Below, one piece after another: positions 33,049 to 34,913 of a stretch of DNA of 64,000 nt. Both the position numbers and the translations under genes were made by a program. The notes under the pieces were generated by a model. That model made no database searches and was not told the origin of the DNA. It saw nothing but the letters and a program-made list of their open reading frames with translations. How positions within the stretch are numbered: the first letter of the stretch is position 1; every line of letters begins with the position of its first letter. The DNA is taken from contig CAJTWU010000003.1 of the NCBI GenBank assembly GCA_910579975.1, positions 30,010-94,009 on the forward strand, read 5' to 3'. The DNA is from an uncultured Vampirovibrio sp. GTDB taxonomy: Bacteria > Cyanobacteriota > Vampirovibrionia > Gastranaerophilales > Gastranaerophilaceae.

Positions 33049-33150
33049 ATGAATAAAGAAAAGGCTGAAACCCTTATGCGCGTAGAGAGAGAGAGAGAGA
33101 GAGAGAGAGAGAGAGAGAGAGAGAGAGTAATTCAATCCCCATATTTTTAG
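33049..33150 (+). other. 5' leader ORF (33 codons, MNKEKAETLMRV(ER)7VIQSPYF*), the out-of-frame true N-terminus of the glycosyltransferase
   Basis: AAGGAGG at 33036-33042 lies 6 nt before ATG 33049. Reading through (AG)22 ends at TAG 33148-33150. The downstream GT8 frame is offset by one AG unit. Confidence 0.7.
33084..33127. repeat. (AG)22 dinucleotide repeat
   Basis: Counted base by base, from a33084 to g33127 (44 nt). Confidence 0.97.
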
Positions 33151-33173
33151 CAAGTGATGATAAATATGCACCA

Positions 33174-34913
33174 ATGGTTGCAGTAACCATTGCTTCAATT
33201 ATGGAAAATACTAAATCACAAATTGCATTTTATATTCTGGATAACAACATTTCCTCATTAAATAAAAAGAAAATAATTAGATTCCTAAAAAAATACTCAA
33301 ATTGTAGCACTAATTTTATCAATATAAACAGTGAATTATTTGCTAGGTTTCCAGAAACATTTCATTATTCTAAAGCAATGTATAGTAGATACCTTATACC
33401 AGAAATCCAATCAAACTTAAAAAAAGTAATCTATACAGATGTTGATGTTATCTTTTTAAATGATATTAAGGAATTTTTTGATATTAATCTTGACGGATAT
33501 GGATTAGCAGCTCCTATAGAAGAAATTGGTCAAATATTGGAAAATGCTTGGGATTTTAATAAAAGAAAAAAGGAATTAGGAATAAGTTTCTCTCATAAAT
33601 TTTTTCAATCAGGTAATTTATTAATAGACTGTGAATATTGGAAAAATAACAAAATTACAGAACAATTATTAAGAAAAACGGAGGAAAAATCCAATAAATT
33701 ATTAGCACCGGATTTAGAAATTTTAAATATTATATTTGAAAACAATTATAAAAAGCTAGATTATCGATATAGTGTTTGTGTACATATGATAAATAATCAA
33801 AATAAGAATTTGTCAGTAATGAAAGAAAGTCTTAAAAATCCTTATTTAATTCATTATAGTGGAAACAAAAAACCGTGGAACAGCCATACAAAGTATTCTT
33901 GGCATTTTTGGAAATACGCTAGAAAAACACCATTCTTTTATAATTTAATTGTAAATTATATAATACAAAACACAAAACTTTTTAAAAAGAAGAAAACAAA
34001 TATAAAAAATACTACAGTAAATACAAATTCCGAAATCAGTGTTGTATTAAATTTATATAAAAGACCAGAAAACCTTAAGGTTCAATTAGAAGCTCTTGAG
34101 AAACAAACACTAAAACCAAAAGAGATAATACTATATCAAGACGGCACATCTGATACAATAAAAATCCCTGATGATATTAAAGAAAAATTTGCAATCATAG
34201 AAATTAGTAATGAAAACAAAGGAGTATGGGCAAGATTTGATTTTGCCAAAAGAAAAAGTAATTGTGAATATGTATGTATATTTGATGATGATACGATTCC
34301 AGGATCCAGATGGCTTGAAAATTGTATGAATGAAATGAAAAAACAAGAAGGATTATATGTAACAATAGGGATATTAATGGATGATGCTGAAAAGTATCCA
34401 TATTCAAATTATTTCCGTACTGGTTGGGATGGAAACAATAATGAAACATTAGAAGTTGATTTTGGAGGGCATAGCTGGTTTTTCAAAAAGGATTGGTTAA
34501 CTTACTTATTTGAAGACTCTCCTAAAGAAATACAGCAATTTAAGCTTGCAGGAGAAGATATGGCATTTTCTTATGCACTCAATAAACATAATATAGGAAC
34601 TTTTGTACCTCCACATCCGAAAAACAATAAAGAATTATATGGTTCTATTCCCAAAAAAGCTTGGGAACTTGGAACATCAAAAAACGCTATATCAACGAAT
34701 GTAAATAACTTAGCTCTAATGAATAATGCCATTAAAATTCTGCTTGATAATGATTGGAAAACCTTAACAAAAAGAAATCCTGAATATTTTAAAAAAGTAT
34801 GTAAACAACAAAAATCACATAATAATTTTATTCAAAATATATTTTCCATAAAAAACAAAGGGGCAAGAAAAATTATAACTATTTTAGGAATAAAGCTAAG
34901 CATTAAAGTTTAA
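33174..34913 (+). CDS. two-domain glycosyltransferase (N-terminal GT8, C-terminal GT2-like), 5' end disrupted by the (AG)22 frame state
   Basis: GT8 motifs: DVDVI (DxD), FQSGNLLID and IHYSGNKKPW. The conserved N-terminal strand IPIFLASDDKYAP is encoded upstream of the first in-frame ATG (33135-33173). The C-terminal half carries ISVVLNLYKRPENL...IFDDDT. Confidence 0.85.
   Translation: MVAVTIASIMENTKSQIAFYILDNNISSLNKKKIIRFLKKYSNCSTNFININSELFARFPETFHYSKAMYSRYLIPEIQSNLKKVIYTDVDVIFLNDIKEFFDINLDGYGLAAPIEEIGQILENAWDFNKRKKELGISFSHKFFQSGNLLIDCEYWKNNKITEQLLRKTEEKSNKLLAPDLEILNIIFENNYKKLDYRYSVCVHMINNQNKNLSVMKESLKNPYLIHYSGNKKPWNSHTKYSWHFWKYARKTPFFYNLIVNYIIQNTKLFKKKKTNIKNTTVNTNSEISVVLNLYKRPENLKVQLEALEKQTLKPKEIILYQDGTSDTIKIPDDIKEKFAIIEISNENKGVWARFDFAKRKSNCEYVCIFDDDTIPGSRWLENCMNEMKKQEGLYVTIGILMDDAEKYPYSNYFRTGWDGNNNETLEVDFGGHSWFFKKDWLTYLFEDSPKEIQQFKLAGEDMAFSYALNKHNIGTFVPPHPKNNKELYGSIPKKAWELGTSKNAISTNVNNLALMNNAIKILLDNDWKTLTKRNPEYFKKVCKQQKSHNNFIQNIFSIKNKGARKIITILGIKLSIKV

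Follow-up and report, generated by a model that had tools for sequence, protein, structure and literature searches.

A candidate phase-variable (AG)n tract at the start of a predicted two-domain glycosyltransferase gene in an uncultured member of the Gastranaerophilaceae

We analysed a 64,000-nt stretch of DNA, here called the window, from an uncultured Vampirovibrio sp. of the Gastranaerophilaceae (assembly GCA_910579975.1, contig CAJTWU010000003.1, positions 30,010 to 94,009 of the forward strand), in which a gene for a predicted GT8+GT2 glycosyltransferase carries a perfect run of 22 AG dinucleotides at its 5′ end. Our preferred reading, which we hold to be probable, is that this run acts as a slipped-strand translational ON/OFF switch of the enzyme and that the window contains an OFF allele. 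In this model the true start would be ATG 33049, behind a strong Shine-Dalgarno sequence, and a short leader followed by (AG)n, encoding a Glu-Arg helix of variable length, would run straight into β-strand 1 of the GT8 domain, with the GT2 domain after it. Slipped-strand mispairing during replication would add or remove AG units, so that any n that is a multiple of three, such as 21, would yield a bifunctional glycosyltransferase of about 620 aa (ON), and in the other two phases ribosomes would stop at TAA 33128 or TAG 33148, having made some 27-33 aa (OFF). With n = 22 the window allele would be OFF and a single unit away from ON. Switching of this kind would presumably be rapid and reversible within populations and would be expected to alter the surface glycan.

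The locus has the features by which contingency loci are usually recognised: an uninterrupted repeat whose unit length is not divisible by three, placed in the 5′ part of a coding region behind a credible ribosome-binding site (RBS) and start codon, with a repeat number that varies between constant flanks, and with ON and OFF alleles of which the OFF frames end early. We present it as a well-supported candidate contingency locus of a known switch type, in a lineage for which we found none reported. A first reading, made by a model from the sequence alone (the sequence-only reading), was aware of no description of such a locus in this lineage, and our literature searches agree, as full-text searches on Melainabacteria, Gastranaerophilales or Vampirovibrionia together with phase variation returned nothing relevant.

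The repeat, its frames and the predicted enzyme

Direct reading of the sequence and Tandem Repeats Finder (TRF) bore out the positions and frames that the sequence-only reading had assigned to the AAGGAGG motif, ATG 33049, the (AG)22 tract and TAG 33148 (Table 1). The frame opened by ATG 33049 translates as MNKEKAETLMRV(ER)7VIQSPYF*. The glycosyltransferase frame is open from 33069, as had been claimed, reads ...ESNSIPIFLASDDKYAPMVAV, and offers no ATG, GTG or TTG ahead of ATG 33174, which has no Shine-Dalgarno sequence in front of it. When alleles of 18 to 26 units were rebuilt in silico, n = 18, 21 and 24 gave full-length products of 618, 620 and 622 aa, and every remaining n in that range led to a stop after 25-35 aa; the prediction that 21 or 24 units would join ATG 33049 to the GT8 frame was thus reproduced. 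In-frame versions of these simulated alleles read (AG)n as (Glu-Arg)n; n divisible by three is ON, and the window state is OFF. The stops of both out-of-frame phases lie no more than 22 nt past the tract. An AG run of even 16 nt was expected 0.00 times in 100 dinucleotide-preserving shuffles, and (AG)22 and a (GTATA)5 run are the only long simple repeats in the 64 kb.

The frame that the tract separates from its start encodes a GT8 domain. PF01501 matched with E = 8.3e-46 and 157 bits against a cut-off of 24.3, over profile positions 1-251 of 253, and profile position 1 falls on 'PIFLASDD', upstream of ATG 33174. In a nine-sequence alignment I4, P5, F7, D11 and Y14 are invariant and all precede Met17, the residue encoded by that ATG; D11, Y14, D105-V-D107, H243 and K249-P-W251 are invariant as well and match their LgtC equivalents, whose roles are taken from the 1GA8 structure. 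The closest solved structure by sequence is LgtC in the PDB (E = 3e-18, 24% identity), with LgtC residues 3-11 aligned on the segment before the methionine, and in the complex of LgtC with UDP-Gal the N-terminal loop touches the nucleotide. Homologues with an N-terminal GT8 domain start as M-x(3-13)-IPxFLxxDxxY.

The AlphaFold (AF2) model, with a mean predicted local distance difference test score (pLDDT) of 87, places the Glu-Arg stretch in an N-terminal helix (residues 2-21) and IPIFLAS in β-strand 1 (residues 23-29, pLDDT of about 94). In this model the methionine of ATG 33174 is residue 36 and lies within helix 1, and a product begun there would therefore lack the central β-strand 1 and the UDP-binding loop of the GT8 domain. 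Foldseek aligned the GT8 half with LgtC at a target-normalised TM score of 0.80-0.81 and a root mean square deviation of 3.7 Å. The Pfam boundary, the invariant columns, the LgtC alignment and the modelled strand all support the earlier proposal that the segment before ATG 33174 is the conserved GT8 N-terminus. The contingency-locus reading as a whole could have been undone by orthologues that lack the repeat and begin, with full activity, at the counterpart of 33174. No true orthologue free of the repeat turned up, and the relatives examined that have an N-terminal GT8 domain, which stand at the level of paralogues (44-51% identity), begin 3-13 residues ahead of the IPxFLxxD strand instead of at that counterpart.

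Behind a low-confidence linker (model residues 306-320) follows a second glycosyltransferase domain, matched by PF00535 at residues 330-454 of the 620-aa form (E = 4.2e-11, 43.5 bits against a cut-off of 23.3). Its DxD-type motif 'FDDDT' is kept in homologues, which are 50-68% identical over the C-terminal half and carry the names Gastranaerophilales or Gastranaerophilaceae. By profile, motifs and fold, the gene is predicted to encode a bifunctional GT8+GT2 glycosyltransferase. With the whole chain, the top Foldseek matches were LARGE1, WbbM, E. coli K4 chondroitin polymerase (K4CP) and Pasteurella heparosan synthase 2 (PmHS2), with E values of about 1e-20 to 1e-12. Each of these has two GT-A domains per chain, as predicted here, and in LARGE1 and WbbM the first domain is GT8-like, as in the window protein. 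The arrangement of the domains differs, which is why the whole-chain TM score is only 0.3-0.4, and the identity is 12-20%. The layout resembles that of polymerases of disaccharide-repeat polysaccharides, and a polymerase role is suggested by analogy only. To our knowledge, none of these four enzymes is repeat-switched.

Table 1. Features of the repeat locus in the window and of its counterpart in the sister species
Feature	Coordinates	Strand	Remarks
AAGGAGG Shine-Dalgarno sequence	33036-33042	+	6-nt spacing to start ATG; read from sequence
Start ATG (33049-33051) and leader codons MNKEKAETLMRV	33049..33083	+	Would be the N-terminus of the full-length ON-phase gene
Perfect (AG)22	33084..33127	+	TRF: 100% perfect, period 2, 22.0 copies; begins 35 nt after ATG 33049
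TAA	33128..33130	+	Ends the leader frame if n leaves remainder 2 on division by 3 (n = 20, 23, 26 end ...RE*)
TAG	33148..33150	+	Ends the leader frame if n leaves remainder 1 on division by 3, the window state; 33-aa product
16 codons SNSIPIFLASDDKYAP	33126..33173	+	GT8 core before the only in-frame ATG: β-strand 1 and D-x-x-Y nucleotide-binding loop
579-aa open reading frame (ORF)	33174..34913	+	Gene-caller annotation (OFF-state call); remaining GT8 plus GT2 domain
GT8 domain (retaining, LgtC-like GT-A)	33138..33884	+	PF01501; DxD motif (DVD) and HYxGxxKPW motif
GT2 domain core	34038..34412	+	PF00535; conservation reaches the C-terminus
Possible weak promoter TTGTTA, 18 nt, TATTCT	33000..33029	+	Putative; by eye, 8/12 consensus matches
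Sister-species leader and tract	L100 6360-6620; L101 2755-3010; L102 2110-2365	minus (L100)

Tract length among related genomes

Related contigs were retrieved in two ways. Those found with the 579-aa protein can by construction yield OFF alleles only, and those found with the neighbouring SecF and SDF proteins are unbiased as to phase. The protein of the 579-aa ORF occurs in identical form (P0122) on 13 public contigs. Haplotype A, with the flanks of the window, has n = 13 in GCA_948697725.1, in ERZ17754089 and in GCA_949486905.1 (98.8% identical to the window), and n = 21 in GCA_949421985.1 (contig L010) and in GCA_949426375.1, where unrelated sequence at the contig end follows just after the tract. 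In SRR15058525 the contig ends within the tract, giving n of at least 14.5, and the window itself has n = 22. Haplotype B (98.5% identical) has n = 14 in three Logan runs and one long-read assembly, and n = 13 in a fourth Logan run; the Logan runs with 13 or 14 units belong to one accession series (ERR50318xx-ERR50319xx). A leader peptide corresponding to n = 16, on a 248-kb contig, was the only match in the protein collection among ten predicted leader peptides looked up exactly.

The flanks are constant to a degree that isolates the tract. Contig L001 shows no mismatch to the window over 7740 nt and L010 none over 6827 nt, the sole difference being the tract in both cases (13 against 22 units, and 21 against 22, a single AG unit). 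A change of one unit in sequences that are otherwise identical is what slippage characteristically leaves behind. The strains share a conserved leader, and the tract is perfect and uninterrupted in every allele and in the sister species discussed below. Of the lengths found, 21 is in frame, and 13, 14, 16 and 22 are out of frame. In GCA_949421985.1 (n = 21) the gene was called open to the contig end, at 611 aa, on a contig that begins 8 nt before the tract and so leaves the start codon off, which limits this allele as evidence for an ON state. The sequence-only reading had offered a single, fixed, in-frame length as the outcome that would overturn it; the lengths vary between genomes instead, and n = 13, 14, 16, 21 and 22 among identical or nearly identical genomes, an in-frame n = 21 and the purifying selection described below support the contingency locus that it proposed.

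Three assemblies (L010, L012 and L013) break at the tract, which is compatible with high-frequency length change and not diagnostic of it. The offsets of these breaks, considered as a sign of heterogeneity within samples, did not fit a simple k-mer model and were not used. A DNA-pattern scan for the tract with its flanks in Joint Genome Institute (JGI) metagenome contigs gave two chance matches, neither with an AG run. A scan with the single protein found no match in the GTDB species-representative genomes, and therefore either the gene is missing from the representative of this species or the collection does not include the species. A scan of the GTDB representatives with the GT8-domain alignment returned 79 loci (best identity 51%), none of which has an AG tract at the GT8 start, so the tract is lineage-specific and not a trait of the GT8 gene family.

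Weighing the switch against its alternatives

Several observations weigh against a switch. The tract lengths are those of assembled contigs. The alleles assembled with their own start codon are all out of frame, with the 579-aa OFF-state call on 19 contigs, and the sole in-frame allele (n = 21) comes from contigs broken at the tract. A search of 5.8 billion protein clusters found no protein of at least 600 aa and no ON N-terminal fragment. The values of 13-16 units in metagenome-assembled genomes (MAGs) of unknown assembler (L001, L002, L007, L101, L102 and P0280) may be collapse artefacts of a longer tract, and a single read set may underlie both L002 and L010. Finally, the gene is dispensable, since its site is empty in two sister species: where the isoleucyl-tRNA synthetase (IleRS) is 95% and 91% identical to that of the window, SecF adjoins the SDF gene with neither the gene nor the tract between them.

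The empty sites and the OFF state of every allele assembled with its start codon, along with the position of the gene outside any glycan gene cluster, would fit a decaying accessory gene. The frameshift would then mark a stage in the loss of a dispensable and horizontally mobile glycosyltransferase gene by pseudogenisation, and the tract would be a neutral microsatellite with no adaptive role in switching. The rest of the gene speaks otherwise. The 1785-nt ORF is free of stops in three diverged alleles, and between the window and haplotype B it carries 48 synonymous and 26 non-synonymous differences, a ratio of non-synonymous to synonymous rates (dN/dS) of 0.11 overall, 0.13 in the GT8 half and 0.10 in the GT2 half. 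The 16 codons before ATG 33174, translated only in the ON phase, are part of what is conserved: between strains they differ only by S to T, one synonymous Pro codon and I to V (SNSIPIFL against SNTIPVFL), the V being the residue of most homologues. The tract has moreover stayed perfect throughout, an in-frame allele exists, and translation in either OFF frame ends immediately, as it would in a designed switch. The rest of the ORF is intact and under purifying selection, unlike that of a decaying gene, and we regard decay as improbable. The dS of the glycosyltransferase between strains (0.158) is 8- to 20-fold that of the adjoining secD/secF (0.007-0.019), suggesting allelic exchange, that is, replacement by recombination, at the locus.

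A rival reading replaces the ON/OFF switch by one with three states, since when n leaves remainder 1 on division by 3, ribosomes might reinitiate at ATG 33174 and make a protein with a dead GT8 and a working GT2 domain, so that the gene would alternate between bifunctional, GT2-only and null. TAG 33148 does lie 23 nt before ATG 33174, close to it in that phase only; the GT2 domain is an independent fold behind the low-confidence linker, and GT2-domain homologues occur with other N-terminal domains. In general, however, ribosomes reinitiate poorly across gaps of more than 20 nt, ATG 33174 is without a Shine-Dalgarno sequence, and an N-terminal domain deprived of β-strand 1 may fold wrongly and make the protein unstable. 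There is accordingly little probability, in our view, that a third state is in use.

A further explanation holds that the tract is fixed and in frame, for example at 21 units, that the varying counts, the 22 of the window included, are errors of assembly or polishing, and that the gene is constitutive. We simulated the de Bruijn shortcut on the window and found that a tract longer than k-1 can collapse to (k-1)/2 units, that is, to 13, 14, 15 and 16 units for k = 27, 29, 31 and 33; the counts of 13-16 are thus the collapse values for common k. The breaks at the tract in L010, L012 and L013 and the distance of the window by one unit from the in-frame allele also suit this explanation. So does the pair of contigs L002/L009 (ERZ17754089, 109,935 nt, n = 13) and L010 (109,911 nt, n = 21), whose first bases map no more than 33 nt apart, just 5′ of the tract, and which are probably two assemblies of the same reads; their 13 against 21 units illustrates that the tract length of a MAG depends on the assembler.

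Part of the variation nevertheless lies beyond the reach of collapse. Logan contigs are assembled with k = 31, and only k-mers that occur two or more times enter them (PMC12424806); for this reason tracts of 22-28 nt together with both flanks must be present in the reads. Collapse at k = 31 would give 15 units and not the 11, 13 or 14 found in Logan contigs, which require 31-mers that span both flanks. The difference between n = 13 and 14 within haplotype B, and n = 11 in a sister species, are thereby secured, and 21 against 22 in haplotype A is secured because neither value fits a usual k. The Logan counts also stand one unit apart between runs of a single accession series, and the long-read assembly of haplotype B has n = 14 as well. 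Slipped-strand mispairing makes long perfect dinucleotide tracts unstable, and a perfect tract of 22 units is intrinsically so. We consider a fixed tract disguised by assembly errors very unlikely. Least probable of all, to the point of being barely credible, is that the frame is restored at the AG tract by slippage of the RNA polymerase or by programmed frameshifting of the ribosome, which would make the repeat number irrelevant. Long repeats can promote polymerase slippage in general, but the transcriptional slippage known from bacteria depends on homopolymeric runs of A or T, the sequence after the tract has neither a slippery heptamer nor a stimulatory structure, an Rfam scan of the window matched no RNA family, and the OFF frames end within 22 nt.

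Sister-species layout, known systems and other repeats

The proposed slipped-strand switch in the window has a relative in another arrangement. In a species with 94% identical IleRS (L100-L102), the site holds a gene for a 547-aa glycosyltransferase, equipped with an RBS and ATG of its own; the enzyme shares the GT2 C-terminal half but has another N-terminal domain. About 150 nt 5′ of this gene stands a homologous leader, ATGAAAAGCAAAA(A/T)CGCTGAAACCCTTGCGCGCGT(AG)n, as a separate ORF with n = 11, 14 and 15; the leader is conserved as ATGAAAAGCAAAAACGCTGAAACCCTTGCGCGCGT in the sister species. To judge by sequence comparison, the species share the module of leader and tract but differ in the gene that follows it. 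The sister leader is preceded by a near-consensus promoter, TTGAAT-17-TATAAT, at a position homologous to the putative promoter of the window, and this is the only promoter-like site in the layout. Between the tract and the gene lies a terminator-like hairpin of 16 bp with a U-run behind it (dG -14.4 kcal/mol, z = -4.4). The leader ORF of 59 codons crosses the hairpin only if n is divisible by three, ending just before the RBS of the enzyme; otherwise its stop codon comes immediately behind the tract.

With the only promoter-like site upstream of the leader, the repeat phase would decide whether a translating ribosome melts the terminator. It is conceivable, at a rather low probability, that leader and (AG)n form a portable switching cassette, fused to the enzyme in the window and working as a repeat-phased leader-peptide attenuator in the sister species. 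The unfused layout could instead be simply a relic. We found no description of a repeat-phased leader-peptide attenuator. The nearest comparison is H. influenzae hmw1A, where a repeat in the 5′ untranslated region controls expression: the heptamer repeat forms a hairpin, is untranslated and gives graded expression (PMC12721329). Both combine an RNA hairpin with a repeat in a transcribed leader upstream of the ORF, but the sister tract lies in a translated leader ORF and its hairpin is separate from the repeat.

The switch proposed for the window has counterparts among known systems. In the RfaJ-like GT8 lipopolysaccharide (LPS) glycosyltransferases of H. pylori (HP0208, jhp0820), a simple repeat in the coding region switches expression (PMC1599737; Langdon et al. 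2005, as cited in PMC3046158). These share with the window a repeat-switched GT8 enzyme, differences in repeat number between strains and an 'empty site' polymorphism, but they are single-domain proteins in an LPS biosynthesis context and in another phylum, whereas the window gene encodes a GT8+GT2 fusion and has an unusually long tract of 22 units; the repeat of HP0208 may be a GA dinucleotide tract. The closest solved structure by sequence and fold, LgtC of Neisseria and Haemophilus (a GT8 α-1,4-galactosyltransferase; PDB 1GA8/1G9R), is itself the product of a textbook repeat-switched lipooligosaccharide (LOS) gene, lgtC, whose repeat is poly-G in Neisseria and, in H. influenzae, (GACA)n close to the 5′ end. 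It differs from the window enzyme in its single domain, its repeat type, its hosts among respiratory and genital-tract pathogens and its low identity to the GT8 domain, given above.

The repeat unit itself is found in the outer-membrane genes of H. pylori (oipA, sabA and others), where, according to PMC3960876, 5′ CT/AG tracts switch expression ON and OFF by frameshift. Unit and placement are those of the window, CT on one strand being AG on the other and the tract lying in the 5′ coding region; the oipA and sabA tracts are shorter and lie in the signal-peptide regions of adhesins and porins, whereas the window tract would encode the cytoplasmic N-terminal Glu-Arg helix of an enzyme. Campylobacter jejuni carries multiple poly-G-switched capsule and LOS glycosyltransferase genes per genome, which generate surface diversity (PMC8437040, PMC13317227). 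Genomes related to the window likewise have variable poly-G at gene 5′ ends, described below; C. jejuni differs in that its tracts are homopolymers and in being a cultured pathogen with measured switching rates, and the window tract is a dinucleotide repeat.

Host-adapted pathogens, among them Helicobacter, Campylobacter, Neisseria and Haemophilus, are typified by repeat-driven ON/OFF switching of the enzymes that act on surface glycans, and the same device in the Gastranaerophilaceae, which are uncultured, non-photosynthetic gut commensals in a sister lineage of the cyanobacteria, would be informative. The finding suggests that phages, host antibody or both impose a fluctuating selection on the cell surface of these bacteria, and that the bacteria have a genetic way of hedging against it. 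Annotation is affected too: gene callers report a 579-aa protein that starts inside the catalytic core and short-read assemblers break or collapse the tract, and such loci are therefore systematically mis-annotated in MAG catalogues or lost from them. The poly-G tracts at other gene starts in relatives hint at a wider switchable set that could be mined from metagenomic reads.

In the window, the glycosyltransferase gene stands between a divergent SDF-family transporter gene on one side and convergent secF/secD on the other, and is solitary. The putative promoter sits in the 79-nt intergenic region shared with the transporter gene; a scan for consensus promoters and terminators around the gene found nothing convincing in that region and did not report the weak 8/12 site. 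The larger ORFs of the window include no mismatch-repair genes, which is uninformative as to dinucleotide instability. The IleRS of the window is 88% identical to that of a MAG labelled 'Acinetobacter sp. CAG:196_36_41', which we take to be a mislabelled Melainabacteria MAG (GTDB genus CAG-196).

Variable homopolymers were seen at other genes of the family. In the species with 95% identical IleRS, runs of 11, 10 and 13 G follow the leader MEKPACSKTRAITGFA (L096 11865-11925; L098 4299-4355; L099 6221-6280) where a gene annotated with 895 aa, which is absent from the window, has its 5′ end. Its in-frame form of 933-934 aa would have a signal-peptide-like N-terminus past the tract; that form would require G9 or G12, and none of the alleles seen is in frame. 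CAG-196-like genomes have 12, 10 and 11 G at the start of a 210/250-aa ORF (L108, L109, L111 at 14514), the long form being called for the G10 allele only, and the leader of this ORF (ATGCTTGAAACCCTTGTA...) has GAAACCCTT in common with the leader of the AG tract. L109 also has a G15 run (4355-4369), with a flagellin gene some 75 nt downstream of it. The variable poly-G at the starts of genes in these relatives suggests that the family uses such switches more widely. At the loci of distant GT8 homologues we noted G15 (L017 5009-5023), G13 (L021 1390-1402), C13 (L038 2789-2801) and A17 (L033 4268-4284), in gut MAGs of Alphaproteobacteria, Helicobacter sp., 'Lactobacillales' and Gastranaerophilales; these may be further contingency tracts.

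Comparison of 30142-31610 and 32970-34959 with L096, L100 and L104 shows that, relative to sister species, the window has two insertions that flank the SDF transporter gene. The second consists of leader, tract and glycosyltransferase gene, and the first of three small ORFs (30500-31567) without Pfam matches. The (GTATA)5 run at 30363-30387 lies 113 nt 5′ of the ATG (30500) of this three-gene cassette and just 3′ of a promoter-like TTACAA-17-TATAGC. Most related assemblies have five copies of GTATA, L013 has six or possibly more (given the limit of k = 31), and L095, an error-prone long-read assembly, has seven, making (GTATA)n a second variable repeat within the window.

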